From Eledone cirrhosa (Eukaryota): a DNA stretch of 64,000 nucleotides. Below are positions 4,597 to 64,000 of this stretch, piece by piece. The position numbers and the translations under genes are program-made. The notes beneath the pieces are model-generated. The model saw nothing but the letters and a program-made list of their open reading frames with translations, was not told where the DNA came from and searched no databases. Numbering within the stretch: position 1 is the first letter of the stretch; the number at the start of each line of letters is the position of its first letter. The stretch is taken from the NCBI GenBank assembly GCA_964016885.1, contig OZ024748.1, forward strand, positions 57,970,001 to 58,034,000, read 5' to 3'.

Positions 4597-5372
4597 TTAT
4601 TAGCAATAATAATTGTTTCTACTTCTGGCACAAGGCAAGCAATTATCTCAGTGCATTACTGGTACATTTTATTTAACCCATAATAATTGTTTCTACTTTA
4701 GCACAAGGCCAGCAAATACCCAGTACATTACTGGTACTTTATTTTATTGACCCCTTAAGGATGAAAGGCAAAGTTAAACTCGGCGGGATTTGAACTCAGA
4801 ATGGCAAGGGCCGTAACTCTATGCGTCAAAGCAAGGCGTCCGACCCTCTACCGATACTGCCAATTCACCGCCCTTTTAACCCATAATATTTAACCCATAA
4901 TAATTGTTTCTACTTTAGGCACAAGGGCAGCAAATACCCAATACATTACTGGTACTTTATTTTATCGACCCCGTAAGGATGAAAAGCAAAGTTAACCTCG
5001 GCGGGATTTGAACTCAGACTGTAAAGGGTCGTAACTATGCTATTTGAACTCAGATCATAAAGGGCCTTAACTCTATGCTGCAACGCATGGCGTCCGACCA
5101 TCTACCGATACTACCAATCCACCGCCCTCAGTAAAAAAATAGTTATTATTAGCAATAATAATAACTGTTTCTATTTTTTGACAAAAGTCCAGCAATAATA
5201 TCAGTACATTACTGGTACTTTAATTTATCGACCCCGTAAGGATGAAAGGCAAAGTTAAACTCGGCGGGATTTGAACTTAGAATGGCAAGGGCCGTAACTC
5301 TATGCGTCAAAGCATGGCATCCGACCCTCTACCGATACTGCCAACGCACCGCCCTATTAGCAATAATAATAA
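4597..5372 (-). mobile_element. Tandem/nested array of four SINE copies
   Basis: Copies at about 4607-4672 (partial), 4683-4873, 4899-5129 and 5160-5354, separated by repeated TTTAACCCATAAT or TATTAGCAATAATAAT. Confidence 0.9.
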
Positions 5373-6478: not shown

Positions 6479-6508
<30 letters not shown>

Positions 6509-6511
<3 letters not shown>

Positions 6512-7452
6512 AAATGAATACGAGGAACATAAACCATTAAAATATGTTTATATAACAATGCACCTACGAACGTTTCTTTTATCAAGAGCATGGAAAAAAA
6601 AATTATCAATACGCGACCCAGGATGGGTGCATGTGTTGTTATTCCATCAGAGCAGGGGGAGTAACTCTGGCCGGTGCTCGACCAATCATGTCCTACTTGG
6701 TTTTTTATCCATTTATATGGTGGCATTTGTGTTATATGGGTTATATTGGTGCTGTTTCACTAATGCAGGTTCGAGCCAAGTCTGGAATGCACATTTATTA
6801 TTTTGTGGGTGTTGTTTTACTCATGCCGGTTCGTGCAGTGTCTGGGATGTACATTTGGTGCACAGATGTTTGTTTACACCGCCTACCCACCGTAGTGTTA
6901 TGGTTTGGGCAGGTGGAACAGTTTATAGTGTTCATGCCACAGTCGCTTCCCAGGCGAATTCCGAGGCCTGTACTCGGTGCTTACAGTTTATGACTGATTC
7001 AGCCCTGCTGTTTATGTGCTCGTGGGGTGTTCTTATGATGTAGTAAAGCTCCATGCGGCAAAGCTGGCATTTCCTCTTGAAGTTGTAGGGTGCAGCCCTA
7101 CCGACAATATCCCAGTGTGTAGAGAAGCTGATGTTGGCGTCTTTTAATGTAGTGACGTAATTGGCAAGCGATGTGGAGTGCCTTATTTTTTTGTTCCTGA
7201 AAGAGTGGAGATAAGTCCACTCTGGGCGAAACGTACGTAGGTGCATTGTTATATAAACGTGTTTTAACGGTTTATACTCCTTGTATTCATTTCTTTTATA
7301 ATCGCTCTGCTTATTTTTTCTCGCCCACTAAATATTAACGCTTCTAATATTTAACCCTGTAGACACGAGTATTGAGCACATTTGCACAAACGGTTGGCAA
7401 CTAAATATATGTATCGTCCATCTTTCCTTTTTTCTCTCTCTCAATACTAAAT

Positions 7453-7634: not shown

Positions 7635-7713
7635 CTCTACTGAGGAACGAATCCTACCGTGACTAATACCACTGGAAAGTTTCGTGAAATAGTATTTTTA
7701 AGATAAAATAGAG
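7635..7713 (+). ncRNA. Hammerhead-like motif with extended stem II
   Basis: CTCTA-CTGAGGA-ACGAA...TTCGT-GAAA...TAGAG. Core and stem II are intact; the cleavage triplet is unclear. Confidence 0.5.
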
Positions 7714-8292: not shown

Positions 8293-8632
8293 AAAAAAAA
8301 AAATATATATATATATATAATGTATAAAAATCAATACAATATAATTACCTCATTACCAGAGGTTTCCCAAATGAGGCGAATACGAAAGAAACGTCTTCAT
8401 TCGTTCGTCAGACGAGGCAATTATAAATGAAAGTTAGAGTTAATAACTCATACTGAAACCCTGTAATCAATAAGCTCAAAGTATAAATACTGAGCATTAT
8501 AATAATATATGTAGTAAGAAACACAGTAAATCGTGTGTCTAATATTACGAGGGTTGAAAATATATATATATTGTGTGTGCCTGAGGATGTCTAACTGTCT
8601 GTCTGTTTGTATTCATGCATGGGTTTGTACCT

Positions 8633-14598: not shown

Positions 14599-14624
14599 AT
14601 ATATATATATATATATATATATAT

Positions 14625-15810
14625 CAAGAAAGAAGAGTGACATGGTTGGCTATACAATAAGGGATTTATTCACATTGCTAACAATTGTTTCTTTGATCTG
14701 GTAGGTCTAGAGTTCGCTAATAGCTTGATTTTGCGACAATCATGAGTGCTAATATGAGCTACATAGATATAATTGTTTGGTCCGAAGGAATAAACAACAG
14801 CAAAGAAGGGATTGATTTATGGGCTGACAAGATAATTGTAGACATTACTGCACCATCCTAGTGGTATAGATGTAGGGAGGGTAGAAGGTATTTATAGAAG
14901 ATTATGGTTCTGAAGTGGGCTGTGTGAGAATGTAGATTTCATATGTTAAATGTTAAGTGATTTTCCATTAATATAGGGGATGTTGGTTCGAATCACGGTG
15001 TTTTAAATCTCGTGAATTTTGTTGCAATCTTATGTCTGCAGAAAATTGACATTTCTATTTTGCTGTTGAGTAGCATTTTATCGTTCCTTAAGATATGTAG
15101 CATTCAAGGTTGCAAAGCCCGCAATAGGACATACCGCTGCTATAGGCCTTTGCGGCCACTAATTTCGACCAGCTAATATTGTAATCAAGGTTTTTGTCAT
15201 TAAGTTGCCAGATTTTATTGGCGAGGGTTGTAGAATTTACCAGTGCACGGTTCTTCATTGAATGTCTGTGTACATACCACCTTCTTTAAAAACACCCGTG
15301 GTGGATCCAATGTAATGCCATGTGGAGTTGCCCGAGTTTACAGTACACATGTACACTAGGCTAGAATCTAGGCACTTATTGGCTAATGGGCACTTATCTG
15401 GTAGGTGATATTTGCAGTTTGAAGTATTATTCTGTGCAGCTTTCACATTGCGGTTTTGCAAAATGTTATGTGCGGGATGTGATTCATGCCTATTTAAGTT
15501 TTGCGGTGGTGTGTTCGTATGCGTTTGTGGTTGTGATACAGTAATGTGTTTGAGTTTAGTGCCTGGTGCTATGTTGCGTATAGGTGGGGTAGTTTTCTTA
15601 GTGGTATTTTTGTGGTTGATCTTGCGTATGTGCGATTCAATGTTGGCTGCAGTAGAGTATGAAAGTTTTACAGTTTTCCTATTGACTATTTTATGAATTA
15701 TATCGTTGGAAATTTTGTATTTTAAACTTCGCTCCACGACATCTTCTACATACGGATTACATTGAGTTCTTCATACGGTTTAGACCCTACCATTGATTGG
15801 TAGATTTATC
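14625..15810 (-). mobile_element. Truncated Penelope-like element (linker, GIY-YIG endonuclease and 3' region) between (TA)n tracts
   Basis: ORF 15255-15737 reads KIVNRKTVKLSYST...CPLANKCLDSSLVYMCTV...YIGST. After a frameshift it continues NSTTLANKIWQLNDKNLDYNISWS...KAYSSGMSYCGLCNLE...LLNSKIEMSIFCRHK. A minus-strand GAAACAATTGT HHR remnant lies near 14677-14690. Confidence 0.9.
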
Positions 15811-15886
<76 letters not shown>

Positions 15887-16190: not shown

Positions 16191-16246
<56 letters not shown>

Positions 16247-16249
<3 letters not shown>

Positions 16250-17006
16250 TAAAAGGAAAAGAAAATGCAAGGGGATGCAGAACAATTATATGAAAGACGT
16301 AAAGAAGAAAATTATGAAAATCAACTTTAAGTCGATTTTCATAATTTTCTTATTTACGTCTTTCATATAATTGTTCTGCATCCCTTACATAGACCCACAA
16401 AGTTACTAAGACAAAACATATATATTTGCTAGCATAGGTATGCATCTGTATACAAATCTTGGTAGATATACTAATTCTTTATAATTAACTCCAAATTATT
16501 TGTTGAGCAAAACTTGCCGAAATTACTACTATGGTTCATGGTAGTGGCTAGGCCCTTGTCTTATTAACACTCCACTCCTCACTGATTAACCTCAGTGTCA
16601 CGTGATTGATTCTTTTGAATTTGCCACTGACCTGGTAGGCAGTGAATTTTTTCAATGTCTTGGAATTTAGTCCCCGCTCGCTTTTTTCCATCCACTGAAT
16701 TATTTTTATATAAGTTCCCAGTGTCCTCGCATTGCCTGGAAGCTTAGCTGAGAATAGACTCCCTGATGCCGTAAGGTTTCTCTGTGGATACGCTCCGTAA
16801 CCATATTTATTCCCTTACAGAAACTAATTAGTTGGAGTGAAATCTTAGTAAGTAAGTCGATTTTCATAATTTTCTTGTTTACGTCTTTCATATAATTGTT
16901 CTGCATCCCTTGCATAGAACCGCAAAGTTACTAAGACAAAACATATATATTTGTTAGCATAGGTATGCATCTGTATACATATGTTGGTAGATATACTAAT
17001 TCTTTA
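16247..17006 (+). mobile_element. Non-coding retrozyme/PLE-derived element with direct terminal repeats and a 5' fold-back, inside (TA)n
   Basis: Direct repeats of ~153 bp at 16329-16482 and 16854-17006. Inverted arm 16272-16326 pairs with 16331-16387. HHR at 16758-16838. Confidence 0.75.
16758..16838 (+). ncRNA. Type I hammerhead ribozyme-like motif
   Basis: Stem I ACTCC/GGAGT; core CTGATGc (A9>C); stem II GTAAGG/CCTTAC with a long insert; GAAAC-TAATTA-GTT with palindromic stem III. Confidence 0.7.
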
Positions 17007-17529
17007 TATATATATATATATATAAGCGAAAGCACCACATTTGTTAAAGTAATCCTCGATACATTCCATTAATTTTGACCTCCTTCAATGAAGGGTATCC
17101 TTGTTCAACATTGATCCGGTCCCCTGTCACTTTCTTCAATAAAAAAAATATATAAATGCATGAAGTTGTAAGGAGTTATTCTCTTTAAAAATATGAGTTG
17201 AATATTTTATATAGCTGGAAGAGAATTGGGAGAAATCATGATCAGCTACATGATGTGTCTATATACATGTGTCTGTATACGATAATCCAAACTTGGAGAG
17301 GAAGTATCTGATGATAATATTAATTTTGCTGATTTAAATTGACTGCGCCCTATTATGTATTATCTTAATAGAAAACCACTACATTCGGTAAGGTAATTCT
17401 GAATACACTCCATCAAACAATGAAGGTAATACTGAATTCCTTCAATGAAAGGTATCCTAGCTCAAGGCTGATAATTATTAAATTACAACAAACAAAATTG
17501 AAAATGATATACCGAAAGAATGTATAAAA

Positions 17530-20391: not shown

Positions 20392-20568
20392 TAATAATTG
20401 TTTCCACTTTTAACCCAGTGCATTACTGGTACTTTATTTTATCGACCCGTAAGGATGAAATGCAAAGTTAACCTCGGCGGGATTTGAACTCAGAATCATA
20501 AAGAGAGGTAACTCTATGCTTCAAAGCATGGCGCCCGACCCTCTACCGATACTGCCAATCCACGTCCC
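20392..20568 (-). mobile_element. tRNA SINE, dominant family
   Basis: Family body with A and B boxes. Confidence 0.9.
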
Positions 20569-27265: not shown

Positions 27266-27329
27266 TCAATATATTCTACATGGCTAATATATCACTAATG
27301 TGATATATTAGCCATGTAGAATATATTGA
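27266..27329. repeat. Perfect hairpin, 30-bp stem and 4-nt loop
   Basis: TCAATATATTCTACATGGCTAATATATCAC-TAAT-GTGATATATTAGCCATGTAGAATATATTGA. Confidence 0.95.
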
Positions 27330-27884: not shown

Positions 27885-27925
27885 ATCTTCTGAGGAAAGA
27901 CAAATGTCCGAAACCTTAAGTTTTT
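27885..27925 (+). ncRNA. Degenerate minimal hammerhead-like motif in a (TA)n-flanked insert (27834-28000)
   Basis: CTGAGGA-aaGAC-AAAT-GTCc-GAAAC-CTTAAG with a palindromic loop; stem I not evident. Confidence 0.45.
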
Positions 27926-31495: not shown

Positions 31496-31680
31496 GTGGG
31501 TTGGCAGTATCGGTAGAGAGTCGGACGCCATGCGTTGCAGCAAAGATTTACGGCCCTTTATGTACTGAGTTCAAATCCCACCGAGGTTAACTTTGCCTTT
31601 CATCCTTACGGGTTCGATAAAATAAAGTACGAGTAATACACTGGAATAATTGCTGGCCTTGTGCCAAAGGTAGAAACAAA
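31496..31680 (+). mobile_element. tRNA SINE, dominant family
   Basis: Full head, B box and tail. Confidence 0.9.
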
Positions 31681-39559: not shown

Positions 39560-39712
39560 CAAGATGTATGGTAGGTCGTATGTGAATCGCGATGATCACG
39601 TCTGACCTACCAAATATGCGACGGTAGCTAGTTAAGCTCTATGCGTATAAGCAGAGCAGAAATATTAATGAAAAAGAACAAAGGAACTATTATGACATTA
39701 TAACAAGTTTCT

Positions 39713-39758
39713 TGCCGACAGCCGTTTCGTCCGACCATATGGTGGGATTTTCAAGGCA
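39713..39758 (-). ncRNA. Type I hammerhead ribozyme-like motif (inverted copy)
   Basis: Reverse complement of 40289-40335 with a 1-nt deletion at the base of stem II. Confidence 0.7.
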
Positions 39759-40288
39759 TATAACATGTGATTGTAAGTTCATTATTTACATCAACGTATC
39801 ACTTAAGACTAGCAGTTTGAAATTGTGGTATACATCAGCAGCTCCGCTTGTATACTTGGGGTCTATATTCTAAGGGGGCTCTTTTATATTAGTTGTCGGA
39901 ATTGTAAAAGGGATGGGTTGTGGGGAGTTAAGAGAATTTGAAAATGTCCTGAGAGTCAGGGATTGAAGGTTAAAAATTAGATAATTTATAATTTACGTAT
40001 TAAAAGTAAAAGACTTGGGATCTCGTAGAAGCACCCTAAACAATCCCTCAATAAGTGCATAAAGCTTACAGGCCCCAATAAATTTAACAAACTAGAAGAG
40101 ATTAAGAGACTAATAAAATAAAAAAATAAAAAAATGAAGATATAAAGTTTCCCTAAAAACTATAAATTTTCCCTTAGAATATAGACTCCAAATATACAAG
40201 CGGAGCTGCTGATGTATACCACAATTTCAAACTGCTAGTCTTAAGTGATACGTTGATGTAAATAATGAACTTACAATCACATGTTATA

Positions 40289-40335
40289 TGCCTTGAAAAG
40301 TCCCACCATATGGTCGGACGAAACGGCTGTCGGCA
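40289..40335 (+). ncRNA. Minimal type I hammerhead ribozyme-like motif
   Basis: TGCC-TTGAAAA-GTCC(cACCATATGGTc)GGAC-GAAAC-GGCT-GTC-GGCA. All three stems pair; GUC triplet; UUGAAAA variant core. Confidence 0.8.
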
Positions 40336-41256
40336 AGAAACTTGTTATAATGTCATAATAGTTCCTTTGTTCTTTTTCATTAATATATATATATATATAT
40401 ATATACTGCAGTTGTTCTGGGTCGCTTAACACCCCAAACACAGCGAGGCTCCATATAGTTAATGATATTGCAACAGATATTAGGAACTCAATTCATATGC
40501 ATGTTTCAATCTTCTCACAATAAGCGTACCACCCTGTTTCCCTGACGATATGCCTACCTTCCCCCCAATCTACCTATGAACCTCGATGTCTATGTATTAT
40601 TTATTAGCCTATAAAAATCTCTATCTCTCTGACTAAGTATATACATATCTATCTATCTACCTAACAAAGTTCGTGTCTACCTAACTAAATGTTTAGATGT
40701 ATGACAGTTGTAATAACGGTCTTTATCTATTTATATATATATTGATGGATGTATCTATCTCCGTGAAAGGCCAATATTAACAACTTAGTATAGATTCCTA
40801 TGGGTTAAATCAAAGATCGATACATGGATTGGTGGATGGATGTACATGTATATAAAACCATCGCAATTTACTAGATATATGGATATTCATAACTATAGAT
40901 CGTATGGGAGAAAAGTATTGTAAACATAAAATGAAATACGAGGATTGGTTGTAGGTAAAGGAAGACTGAGGATTCAATCAAGTTCACAGATATTGCTGTA
41001 ATCATACAGTTATTATATCATACAGTTATTATATCATACAGTTATTATATTATTATTTACTAAACTTGAATATGATGCTTGAATAATAATACTGCACTCC
41101 TCATACATACGTGTCTAATGTGTTTGTAGGCCACAACATCAGTAACAGTCACTAACGTATATTTTACAATAATTATATTATATATGAATGCATGCATGCT
41201 CACGCATGTGTAATATAGAGGTGGTATGGTATGCACACCCACCCACAACCACACAT

Positions 41257-41325: not shown

Positions 41326-41595
41326 CACATTTCGCTCTACATGGCTGAATACAATATATGTAATCTGAGTTTTACAATATTAATAATAATATTCGATTCG
41401 TTTGCAATTACGCAAGCAAGCCTCAATGTTATAGCCATGTCAGTAGAATGAACACTTCATTCTTGCTCTTGTGTTGGCATGCGAACCTGCATGCCAACAC
41501 AAGAGCAAGAATGAAGTGTTCATTCTACTGACATGGCTATAACATTGAGGCTTGCTTGCATAATTCGAATAATATTCGAAAAACTCAGATTACAT
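41323..41595. mobile_element. Fold-back insert in (TA)n with 71-bp perfect stem
   Basis: 41412-41482 pairs perfectly with 41489-41559 around loop GAACCT. Outer stem 41358-41373/41580-41595; ~35-bp one-sided tail. Confidence 0.85.
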
Positions 41596-48972: not shown

Positions 48973-49169
48973 CTTATCTCGTTTGTGATCCTGCTTCTAT
49001 TGTGTACGCCTGAAGAAGGGCTAAAGCGAGCCAGGTCGAAATCCTTTTCCATTTTCCATATAAAGCATGGAAACTAAGAAGACTTGTTGTACCTCTGTTT
49101 ATTGCCCCATCCAACTATAAATATGTCATAAAATGCTGTAGTTTGCTTGAAGCATTTTATATAATATAT

Positions 49170-49421
49170 AACTTTGAAAGAGATAGAAGGTTAAACAATG
49201 CAAAATGGACTGAAAGATGAGGTAACGAAAAGTAAGTTACATGGTAATATGTGTTGTCTTCTGTAGTTGTTTTTTTTCTGTCCAATATTTCGGGACCTAA
49301 AAATTCTTTCTTCGGGGTTTAAAGAATTTCAGAGGATAATTTACAAATTATCTAAAACAAAGATTACCATGTAACTTACTTTTCGTTGCCTTATCTTACA
49401 GTCCATATTGCCTTGTATCTC
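49170..49421. mobile_element. TA-flanked insert with 49-bp inverted arms
   Basis: 49200-49248 matches the reverse complement of 49363-49411 (about 4 mismatches). Confidence 0.7.
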
Positions 49422-49522: not shown

Positions 49523-49571
49523 TTGCTCCGAAGAATCCAAACCTCGGTCAGGAGGAAACAATTGTAAGCAA
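49523..49571 (+). ncRNA. Minimal type I hammerhead ribozyme-like motif
   Basis: TTGCT-CcGAAGA-aTCC...GGAg-GAAAC-AATT-GTA-AGCAA: stem I TTGCT/AGCAA, palindromic ACAATTGT, GUA triplet, U4>C. Confidence 0.7.
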
Positions 49572-52760: not shown

Positions 52761-52852
52761 CTCTACTTTCATCTATTAACTTTAGTTCAAATAAATTACT
52801 GACAATGTATTAGGGTTTATTTGATGACATTGTAACTAGTACGGAAGTTAGA

Positions 52853-53045
52853 AATAATTGTTTTTACTTTTGGCACAAGGCCAGCAATAACCCAGTGCAT
52901 TACTGGTACTTTATTTTATCGACCCCGTAAGGATGAAAGGCAAAGTTAACCTCGGCGGGATTTCAACTCAGAATGGCAAGGACCGTAACTCTATGCGTCA
53001 AAGCATGGCGTCCAACCCTCTACCGATGCTGTCAATCTACCGCCT
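52853..53045 (-). mobile_element. tRNA SINE, dominant family, full length
   Basis: Head to tail match with the other copies. Confidence 0.9.
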
Positions 53046-54243: not shown

Positions 54244-55960
54244 CATATATATAATACACTCTGTCTAGCTCTACACCTCGCCACTGACGTGGAACTAAAC
54301 ATCGAGTGCTCACCTAGGTGAACCTACAGTAACTTCCCGTTACATTTCCCGGATATATATATACACATATGAGAGAGTGAGAGAAATACAACGTACTAGA
54401 TATGGCACTCTCTTCTGTAATATTTCCGTTAATATCTGCAAGCAGTATCTCTGATGATCCACTTGAAATTGTATGTTTGATGATAGAGTTTGTTATACTA
54501 AGAATAACAAATGAAAGTTACGCCTACTCCGCATTGAATTCGTGTCTCCATGTGATGTTGTATATTCCGATATTGTAAGAATATGTTGCCTATATATATA
54601 TGTGTGTTCAGTATTTCTTGGCAATCGAAGGCTCTCGAATTAGTTTGTGATTAGTAAAACCCCGTCGCTACGCTAGCGGTAAAAAATATTTGTTAATCAT
54701 GTACTTGCCTTTGTCATTATGACGTCAACGTATTGTTGAGTTACGCTGTAAACTATCTATCTATCTTTCACACACACTCACACTCTCTCTTACATTGTAT
54801 TTCTCTCTCAACAACATTTCACACATATATGTATAAGGAGGAGAAAAAGTTGTTGAGGGAGAGATAGATAGATAGAGAGAGAAAGAGTGTGAGTCTGTGT
54901 GTGTGAAAGATAGATAGGAAGTTGTGTTGACATATTCGCGCCTAAAATATATTTTTCAAATTCTGTCGTTATTACTTTCATTCTTACGTCATAAACGATC
55001 CACCTCACTTTCAAAAATATAATCACCCTCTATATATCTAACTATTGTTCTCTCTCAATAAAAACAATGTTTTCTCCTCCCCCATTTTCCCCTCCTCATA
55101 CCTGATTTGACAGGGGTTATCTCCACCTTTGATTCCTCCCATTCTTCTGTTTCTTTGCATATATGATGTGGCGGACATACAGACGGAGATCAGTTTGTCT
55201 TTCATAATATTAATGACTATTCTAAGCATACATATGTGGCCCAGGAGTTTGAGTATTTGGTTCACTATCATAAGATCAAGAATCGGGTTGTGATAGTGTG
55301 CTCTGCTCTTGAGCAGGAAAACCTATGTGAAGTTACTTCAGTGTAGTCAGCCCAGAAAACTATGTTGTGATTGACAAACATTTTAACTTATTGCATCGGG
55401 CTGTATTCTTCGCGAAATATACGTCAATATTATAGACATCTGTGGGATATTCTTCCACTTGCATGATAATTTCACGAGCAAGCCGCTCCGATAATCAAAC
55501 TCCCGGACATTCACTCTCTGCGCCACCGGATGTCCAATGAAACAATGTACAATTCGGAAAGGAATGTTTTCCAATTGTTTAATATCTGAAAACTCCTTGT
55601 ATATCCTTGTAAAGGTAGGTAAACCTAATTCATATACCTATACCAAAGTTGCTAAGTGCATGATGACTGAAGGATTATATTCATAATACAACCCATGTAA
55701 GTTATGAAGTCTATAGATTAAATTATATACATATCTCTAACATTAAGATACGGACATATGCTATGGGAATAGAATATTAATAAAAATCATCACAAAAGCA
55801 AGCTGTAAAAGGATATGGAATACATTATATACAGTGTTATCCGTTGCACAGTTCATACAGTTGCTTCCTGTGTGTATGTTGTATTGTCCATTATTGGGTT
55901 ATTATTTTTCTTATCGTTGGACTGATATACGTTATATCAAGAGATTTCAACTTTTGTAAA

Positions 55961-56150
55961 TTAATTGTTTCTACGTTAGGCACAAGGCCAGCAATTACCC
56001 AGTGTATTACTGGTACTTTATTTTATCGACCCCCGTAAGGATGAAAGGCAAAGTTAACCTCGGCGGGATTTGAACTCAGAATGGCAAGGGCCGTAACTCT
56101 ATGCGTCAAAGCATGGCGTCCGACCGTCTACCAATACTGCCAATCCACCT
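55961..56150 (-). mobile_element. Full-length SINE with target-site duplication
   Basis: Flanked by ACTTTTGTAAATTAATT at about 55950 and 56153. Confidence 0.92.
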
Positions 56151-59869: not shown

Positions 59870-60059
59870 AACGAAGGCGGTGTGGACCATAACGCACCAG
59901 AGTACTCAATACTTAGGGTAGTAGAGTGGGTAATAGGAAAATGTTTGACCCCGACGGCAGAGCTCAGGCCGTTTCGACGGCTATTTCTGAACTAAATTTA
60001 GTCCAGAAATAGATGTCGAAACGGCCTGAGCTCTCTGCCGTCGGGGTCAAACATTTTCC

Positions 60060-61789: not shown

Positions 61790-62737
61790 ATTATTTTAGG
61801 AGGCAAGTTCTGAGTTCAAATCCCGCCGAGGTTGACTTTGCCTTTCATCCTTACGGGGTCGATAAAATAAAGTACCTGTAATGCACTGGATAATTGCTGG
61901 CCTTGTGCCTAAAGTAGAAACAATTATTTTAGGAGGCAAGTGGATTGGCAGTATCGGTAGCATGTCGGACGCCATGCTTTGTAGCACAGTTACGTCCCTT
62001 TACGGACTGAGTTCAAATTTCGCGGAGGTTAACTTTGCCTTTCATCCTTACGGGGTTGATAAAATAAAGTACCAGTAATACACTTTGATAGTTGCTGGCC
62101 TTGTGCTAAAAGAAGAAACAATTATTTTAGGAGGCAGGTGTATTGGCAGTATCGGTAGAGGATCGGACGCCATGCTTTGAAGCAAAGAGTTACGGCCCTT
62201 TATGCTCTGAGTTCAAATTCCACCGATGTTAACTTTGCCTTTCATCCTTACGGGGTCGATAAAATAAAGTACCAGTCACGCACTGGAGTCGATTTAGTCG
62301 ACTTTCCCCTCCTCCAAAATTGCTGGCCTTGTGCCTAAATAAGAAACCATTATTTTAGGAAGCAGGTGGATTGGCAGTAACGGTAGAGAGTCGGACACCA
62401 TGCTTTGAAGCATAGAGTTACGTCCCTTTACGGTCTGAGTTCAAATCCCGCCGAGGTTGTCGATAAAATAAAGTACCAGTAATACACTGGGTTTGTGCTG
62501 GCCTTATGCCAAAAGTAGAAACAATTATTTTAGGAGGCAGGTGCATTGGCAGTATCGGTAGAGAGTCGGACGCCAGCTTTGCAACAAAGAGTTACGGCCC
62601 TTTATGGTCTGAGTTCAAATCCCACCGAGGTTAACTTGCGTTTAATACTTACGGGGTCGATAAAGTAATGTACCAGTAATACACTGGGATAATTGCTGGC
62701 CTTGTGCCAAAAGTAGAAAGAATTATTTTAGGAGGCA
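61790..62737 (+). mobile_element. Head-to-tail array of five SINE copies separated by a 16-bp site
   Basis: ATTATTTTAGGAGGCA at 61790, 61923, 62121, 62349 (one mismatch), 62524 and 62722. Confidence 0.92.
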
Positions 62738-64000
62738 GGTGTGCGTTTGTTTTTTATTGCCGCTGGCATACATGTGGGATGAGGCTGTCTTCTTTTCTCC
62801 AACAATGATGTCAAACTTGTGAACAGTAATCTTGAGAAGGGAAGTTTACTGTTGATTGATTTGAATTTTGAAAGGAATATCCTACGTTCAGGAAACCATT
62901 TTGCTTTCAGCTTTGCTAAATCGATCAATGAATTATAGACAATTCTAAGTAGTTTTAACACTTCTTCACAAATATTTTAATTATCATCATCCTCATCATC
63001 ATTATTCCCTTCATCTTGATCAAAAACAATATATCCTCCTGTTAATCATCCGCACCATCAGCAATAGCTTTCTCAAAATTGTCAGCATCATCATCGCTAA
63101 CATCACAATCATCATTACACTAGGCTCAAGCAGTCCCTATTACTCATTCTCATTAAAAACTTTGGATTCCTCCCCAGCCAGTTAATATATTGTAAACTTC
63201 AATAAATGTTAGGAGATTCTCCTTCATTGGAATTATTGTACACGAACAGATTTACCATTGAAACACATTATTTGTCCATTTCTTCAGAACGACATCTTTG
63301 GTTTAATAAAGTGACCTACTTGTCCAATGAGACTTACTTGTACAAATAGATGTGTACGAAGAGACTTACTGAATTAAAAACGAGTGTTGGGATAATGTGT
63401 ATGAAGAGTCTTTACTGAATTAAAAACGAGTGTTGGGATAATGTGCTGCCTTAATTGTGCGAATGCAAACCAACGCCATTAGGTTTCTCTTAATACAATT
63501 CTAAAAATGTCTAACAATATGTTTTTAAATTGATACGTGAAAACAAAAAGAATATCGGTTAAAATGCTGATTATAATAGGAAATACGTTGTTCACGATGA
63601 GCAGGAGAAAAGGACTAGAAAAATAGAAAAATGAATGAAAAACGATTAAAGATGTTTTGGGGTGGGGAAGTCTGACTGGAGTAACGTGGAACAAGAATGG
63701 CTGTATAGTTTATGGCGTACATTAACGGCTGAAACCTTCACAAAGTTGAAAACTCTAAACATATCCATGCATGATGATCAGTATGTTGCTAATAATAATA
63801 CTGACAATAATGATTAACGGTGAAAAATGACACGTTCGAACTTAAGTTAAACTGACAAAACCCATTTATCTTTCACTCCGCTACTGCTTTATTTTTCTTT
63901 GAAAATTGTCTACGGTGAGCGTTGAAGTGAATGTAACAGTTTTGTGAATTAGTGAATAAACCGTAACACTAATTCTATTTATTTTCCTTAAAATAGCAAA

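Follow-up and report, generated by a model that had tools for sequence, protein, structure and literature searches.

A non-coding 525-nt hammerhead unit of a diverged family, lying in a TA microsatellite in the layout of PLE insertions

Animal non-LTR retrozymes, as portrayed in PMC7229834 and bioRxiv 10.64898/2026.07.22.740005, are non-coding elements of less than 1 kb and less than 50% GC which carry a type I hammerhead, reach high copy number, are predicted to be strongly self-paired and are proposed to depend on Penelope-like elements (PLEs); the locus described here resembles them in each of these features. The second of these sources gives consensus lengths of 51-972 bp, a range that covers 525, calls solo monomers frequent, and argues that the elements are non-autonomous PLE derivatives, one of nine dimers having cleaved in vitro. 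PLE insertions themselves are reported as partial tandems in which a truncated copy precedes a full one and the 5' end often carries an inverted piece (PMC8557442, PMC8969392). The kind of element, including its proposed PLE dependence, is thus already in print from many animals, and the value of the present locus is as a clean, high-copy example of it.

The window, the whole 64-kb stretch of DNA that was analysed, holds the insert and its flanks in the following order:

16194..16247, no strand: (TA)27 microsatellite, from its sequence the left side of the likely target site
16248..16255, plus strand: the 8 nt that follow the TA tract, a candidate for the left half of a target-site duplication, suggestive only
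16256..16264, plus strand: 9-nt purine run, matching neither the 525-nt unit nor the right flank
16265..16327, minus strand: fold-back, an inverted copy of the repeat's initial 63 nt that begins where the 5' end is truncated, with a 1-nt centre at 16328
16328..16483, plus strand: R1, the 5'-truncated upstream copy, a pseudo-LTR-like repeat of 156 nt
16484..17008, plus strand: full 525-nt unit, non-coding, a 369-nt middle part ending in the hammerhead and then R2
16737..16866, plus strand: type I hammerhead with predicted extended helix I
16853..17008, plus strand: R2, the downstream repeat copy, passing at its 3' end (about 17004-17008) into (TA)n
17005..17032, plus strand: (TA)10 and 8 nt, the right target side with the candidate right duplication copy

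The sequence-only reading of this DNA had described a protein-free unit of about 525 nt with one hammerhead, direct repeats 525 bp apart with the hammerhead just before the second, some 1.3 turns in all and a 55-bp fold-back at the truncated end, and this anatomy holds in every part. R1 and R2 are direct repeats of 156 nt with seven differences at a spacing of 525, the segment 16328-17004 measures 677 nt, or 1.29 units, and the non-repeated middle is 369 nt. The fold-back arms (16272-16327 and 16329-16384) are 56 nt long and 96% identical with 1 nt between them, or 63 nt if one indel is allowed; the inverted arm is the truncation end turned back as a hairpin and contains no copy of the 3' terminus. 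A search on fold-back ends of PLEs turned up nothing specific. Between the (TA)27 on the left (16194-16247) and the (TA)10 on the right (17005-17024) the unit has a GC content of 36.6%. It encodes nothing recognisable as a PLE protein: the longest frame from a Met round the unit is 66 aa, no reverse transcriptase or GIY-YIG endonuclease ORF is present, and 52 PLE-protein relatives compared with the insert gave no match better than E 0.035. No second copy of the unit is found by blastn in the 64-kb window, where this copy is solitary. The left end of the insert may open with a target-site duplication, as 16248-16255 and 17025-17032 are identical at six of eight positions and both mismatches fall on one CpG of the right copy; a match this good is reached by 50 of 3321 control pairs, the insert's own flank pair included. 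A donor-like GTAAGT word lies at 16848-53; by rough estimate, a unit as large as this should contain one by chance. ARAGORN finds no tRNA gene in the 64-kb window.

The hammerhead has a 5-bp helix I (16758-62 with 16834-38), a core CUGAUGC at 16763-69 in which C replaces A9 at 16769, and a helix II of 6 bp (16771-76 with 16813-18) that has a C-A mismatch at its base and a structured loop of 36 nt. GAAA follows at 16820-23, helix III is a 10-nt palindrome (16823-32), and the triplet is GUU with the predicted cut after 16833, 20 nt before R2 and 171 nt before the 3' end of R2 in (TA)n. A distal helix (16747-53 with 16843-49) is predicted past a 4x4 internal loop, extending helix I to 16737 and 16866. 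A motif of equal stringency occurs in none of 1000 dinucleotide shuffles of the insert, scanned on both strands. Rfam gives no match at the gathering score in the window, and none of its 23 matches at E<=10 over 16200-17100 is to a hammerhead model, so the call rests on a descriptor made for this analysis, on the folds and on the family data. The miRNA-type Rfam matches at the insert, which come from the fold-back hairpin and lie below the gathering score, were rejected.

Among described ribozymes the closest appear to be the minimal and small-helix-III types among the metazoan PLE pseudo-LTR hammerheads, as set out by Cervera and de la Pena 2014 (PMC4209133), which likewise have a 5-bp helix I, a long helix II, an extra base between positions 9 and 10.1, a G10.1-C11.1 pair and a palindromic helix III suited to dimers. 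Unlike those, the unit has a helix III of 3 bp with a tetraloop, an extra base before G12 and a helix I predicted to extend past the internal loop. In the best fold of the monomer the core pairs with the palindrome (-19.7 kcal/mol, against -17.2 kcal/mol for the open form), whereas two copies, when their cores are kept open, pair through a common helix III of 10 bp at -46.4, compared with 2 x -19.7. The family ribozyme is therefore predicted by these models to be poor as a monomer and better as a dimer.

We compared public sequencing runs with one turn of the unit (16328-16852) at 80% likeness, calling joints at the same level. Four of the nine matching runs were covered: X1 and X2, which are one sample from organism A, X7, RAD reads also from organism A, and X4, from organism B; X3, X8, X9 and, with small shares, X5 and X6 were left out. 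No RNA run is listed among the matching public runs, which says nothing on expression, and pattern scans of metagenome contigs, viral contigs and prokaryote genomes gave no match. The family is matched by 1900 contigs in X1, 2050 contigs in X2, 6479 reads in X7 and three contigs in X4, and the unit is covered in all 30 bins by X1, X2 and X7 and in 20 by X4. The X1 contigs fall into identity classes of 349 (99% or more), 595 (95-99%), 733 (90-95%) and 223 (under 90%); this spread, together with the contig numbers, indicates a large and diverged family, the summed contig depth not being taken as a copy number. Six listed pile-ups of X7 read ends and gaps sit at AATT sites of the unit, as expected from the RAD enzyme, and we discounted a biological origin for them.

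The unit is closed at both of its junctions in other copies. The joint from 16852 to 16328, which gives the period of 525, is present in each of the four runs, in a single contig of X1, of X2 and of X4 and in a single read of X7; its sides there measure 38, 34, 18 and 29 letters, respectively, and are short in the last two. Variant joints from hammerhead to repeat also occur, with the 525 spacing and replaced letters in three rows and as a 521-nt form in two contigs. At the other junction, 16483/16484, X2 record 11 (16415-16539) bridges with 17 differences, and 16488 is covered by 63 and 57 contigs, at up to 43 and 54 letters from a contig end. The presence of both junctions in other copies makes the 525-nt unit a property of the family and not the UTR of a long coding element. 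R1 and R2 carry the same minority alleles at 16391, 16418 and 16453, which fits a single template, and their difference of 4.5% implies decay of about 2% per copy, in agreement with the half share of 31-mers that is found in X1 and X2. Against the closure of the unit stand two deletion joints, each single and of low depth, and two inversion joints in the runs.

These continuities bear on one alternative, namely that the insert consists of end fragments of a long coding PLE, a truncated 3' end standing beside a shorter 3' end, the 525-bp period being specific to the locus. It would explain why R1 and R2 end at the same point, at a TATA that could be leftover target, and why some 11-13% of the depth has T at 16484, as for copies that may end there in (TA)n; moreover, 3' fragments of coding PLEs that carry a hammerhead, a short tail and (TA)n lie in the window. 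However, most of the depth at 16484-16488 passes into the middle part, the junction is crossed by diverged contigs, and the insert has no ORF remnant. None of the 21 of 429 loose ends listed marks a common exit into unrelated sequence: 18 resemble, by eye, diverged adjacent unit sequence and show no entry into an ORF, one begins like helix II and continues as a different loop, and two have no match. The depth falls at 16508-16561, 16634-16669 and 16778-16795, where differences cluster, and these dips could hide exits to a longer coding element. We regard this origin as unlikely; that the middle part is simply long-PLE UTR, the outcome which the earlier reading had named as its own refutation, is not what other copies show, as in them repeat continues into middle and hammerhead into repeat.

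The family data also separate the two departures on which that reading had based its judgement that this copy is probably inactive. At 16769 A accounts for 65504 of 65513 depth in X1, for all depth in X2 and for 767 of 772 reads in X7, and with A9 near-invariant in the family the A9>C change is private to the window copy. No change at 16833 occurs among the 40 of 180 variant rows listed, and the X4 contig that runs across 16833 keeps A9 intact, with no change from T anywhere in X4; GUU is therefore probably the family state rather than a lesion. PMC3138052 counts GUU among the cleavable NUH triplets. Being listed as cleavable, and kept in an intact-core copy from another organism, GUU does not argue for inactivity, and it is A9>C that does. 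The hammerhead of the window copy is thus likely disabled, as proposed, with the triplet removed from the grounds.

Other listed variants of the hammerhead region change G-U to A-U pairs (16742 and 16784), retain a wobble (16802), would close a mismatch (T at 16788) or break a pair (16792). At 16768 446 X7 reads leave the reference just after the core and enter a different, AT-rich loop II; behind them, to judge from these reads, is a putative subfamily with an exchanged helix II loop.

With moderate confidence we read the insert as a decayed, dispersed, non-coding copy of this hammerhead family, which an autonomous PLE, through its enzymes, inserted into a TA microsatellite from an uncleaved linear RNA longer than one unit. 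A truncated copy, a full unit, an inverted 5' piece and a TA target together form the published signature of PLEs, and this supports the PLE dependence suggested from the sequence. In vitro a lizard PLE cleaved AT-rich DNA and initiated reverse transcription at a point within the RNA, downstream of the hammerhead; it used mainly unprocessed RNA, mutants of the hammerhead being without effect on insertion, according to PMC11167929. Since a PLE can begin reverse transcription within a transcript that has not been cleaved, the layout alone implies no circular RNA, and the 1.3 turns that had been taken as the mark of one are the ordinary partial-tandem (pseudo-LTR) layout of a PLE. It is this use of uncleaved RNA in vitro, with the published layout, that leads us to favour a linear template over a circle.

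The steps would be as follows. A source locus with more than one unit would be transcribed head to tail; we infer such multi-unit loci because no contig listed from X1, X2, X4 or X7 covers the whole unit. The microsatellite would be nicked by a PLE protein, for which the Hydra clade with its (TA)n target is a plausible source, and reverse transcription would begin at an internal point of the RNA some 171 nt beyond the hammerhead site. Synthesis would then go back through the uncut site, through one whole unit and through 152-156 nt of the next before stopping, whereupon the end of the new DNA would snap back and be copied over 63 nt before being joined to the target. The inserted copy would afterwards decay by about 2%, losing A9.

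The same family and the same PLE helper could instead have used a closed 525-nt RNA, produced by cleavage and ligation at two hammerheads and copied for 1.3 turns. This is possible, though we do not think it the probable course. An uncleaved linear multimer, our template of moderate probability, predicts the same DNA as this more doubtful circle, so the layout is equally expected from both. Circles have been demonstrated for retrozymes of coral, mussel and axolotl, as PMC7229834 relates, and a circular template would suit the closure of the unit at both junctions in other copies, the near-invariance of A9, the minority alleles common to R1 and R2, which fit one template, and the listed variants that improve pairing (16742, 16784 and T at 16788) or keep it (16802), although 16792 breaks a pair. 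The unit also folds far below its shuffles, with z of -3.5 as a linear molecule and -4.8 and -6.0 as a circle, its minus strand giving -1.95. However, two of ten control windows fold as strongly, both of which contain or adjoin hammerhead-like motifs or a fold-back, and strong self-pairing with a conserved A9 fits a functional circular RNA and the linear-template reading equally well. The hammerhead is moreover of the weak type with a palindromic helix III, in the terms of PMC4209133, its monomer fold is inactive-like, and eight of nine Xenopus retrozyme dimers tested in vitro did not cleave, as reported in bioRxiv 10.64898/2026.07.22.740005.

Spread at the level of DNA, by satellite amplification, extrachromosomal circles or a Helitron-type process and with the hammerhead a relic of a PLE ancestor, we consider very improbable. 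Satellite-like amplification of PLE ends has indeed been proposed for retrozymes in bioRxiv 10.64898/2026.07.22.740005. Nevertheless, the sharp 3' end in (TA)n, the inverted 5' truncation and the candidate duplication are signs of target-primed reverse transcription, and the copy is solitary in the window.

Returning to reverse transcription of an uncleaved multimer, the element has to be placed among systems that differ from it in distinct ways. The circle-proven retrozymes are 170-400 nt long, shorter than this unit, and an active retrozyme is expected to have two complete units, where here there are one hammerhead and 1.29 units; with this lack of two hammerheads we file the element as a non-autonomous, PLE-type, retrozyme-like monomer. 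It differs from retrozymes also in a helix II whose 36-nt loop differs between subfamilies. The non-autonomous Chlamys PLEs, for example MRC1 (Craig et al. 2021, PMC8557442), share with it the partial tandem, the inverted 5' piece, the microsatellite target and the lack of an ORF. However, most Chlamys are described there as hammerhead-less, and the examples generally share 3' ends with autonomous partners, a link that the unit does not have in the window. Hydra-clade PLEs, in the same source, resemble it in their (TA)n target and in a hammerhead near the 3' end, and endonuclease fragments of this type lie in the same window, but these elements encode a reverse transcriptase and a GIY-YIG endonuclease whereas the unit encodes nothing.

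Two such fragments occur upstream of the insert:

14624-15816, minus strand: 5'-truncated PLE 3' fragment with a Hydra-type GIY-YIG endonuclease remnant, a decayed hammerhead-like motif and (TA)n
6509-7300, minus strand: second PLE endonuclease fragment, with its endonuclease part at 6968-7255

In the first the endonuclease remnant (15103-15698, minus strand) has a frameshift and stops, and the fragment further contains a 3' region. Its decayed motif near 14675-14750 has GUU and a palindromic helix III; behind it come a tail some 55 nt long and (TA)n. The second has an inverted copy of its own 3' end at its truncated end (6504-6576 against 7228-7300). A 720-aa relative of both fragments, P0018, shows RWK, DKT, a CxC-type linker, CxxC and CxH, which PMC8557442 gives as motifs of the Hydra clade, a clade with hammerheads and a (TA)n target. 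Pfam gave no match for the neighbouring endonuclease fragment and one weak GIY-YIG match, in one of six relatives; a word-indexed protein search gave none. A Hydra-clade PLE is plausibly the mobiliser, the two grounds for its helper role being co-occurrence and the choice of target; against such a tie, the unit shares no sequence with the PLE fragments of the window. The neighbouring fragment was considered as parent of the unit and ruled out, its alignment scores with the unit (30 and 34) being at chance level (shuffled means 32 and 34).

In the literature on octopus and cephalopod hammerheads or retrozymes we found no description of this family, which may sit unnamed in repeat libraries or supplements; the word 'ribozyme' is absent from the main text of the Octopus vulgaris repeat annotation (PMC13282606). 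A bolder reading, which we hold to be doubtful, is of a very abundant, subfamily-rich and probably octopod retrozyme family with a 525-nt circular RNA made by a dimeric GUU hammerhead with an exchangeable loop II, and mobilised by the Hydra clade. If true, this would be a pair of helper and parasite in which a circular and a linear template could be tested against each other on very many insertions. If circles and a Hydra-clade helper were both confirmed, the gain would be a further host lineage, a helper clade known by name and many natural insertion ends with which to ask whether PLE-type elements use circular or uncleaved linear RNA templates.

Other hammerhead-like motifs are scattered through the window. 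That at 8354-8411 (minus strand), which has an intact core, a 10-bp helix I and GUA and lies about 35 nt from a TA tract, is probably another PLE-type end and, judged on its motif, would be the better candidate for an active monomer. At 49528-49566 (plus strand) a hammerhead-like motif has one core change and a palindromic helix III, and its cut-site surroundings resemble those of the motif near 14700. Loose matches to the hammerhead core at 7640-7696, 27890-27922 and 49010-49053 (plus strand) failed the structural scan. Further fold-back palindromes lie at 41406-41565, 59959-60034, 27266-27329 and 49195-49416, three of the four near TA tracts, and a 216-nt inverted repeat (39662-39876 against 40171-40386) ends at a TA tract. 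Hammerhead-like motifs and fold-backs near TA tracts are thus common in the DNA of the window, which suggests that snap-back 5' ends may be common in the source genome. The window also contains many copies of a dispersed, SINE-like repeat of about 190 nt (4682-4872, 20413-20563, 31496-31679, 52852-53045, 55957-56150, 61808-62742 and others), which presumably resembles the SINEs of octopus.
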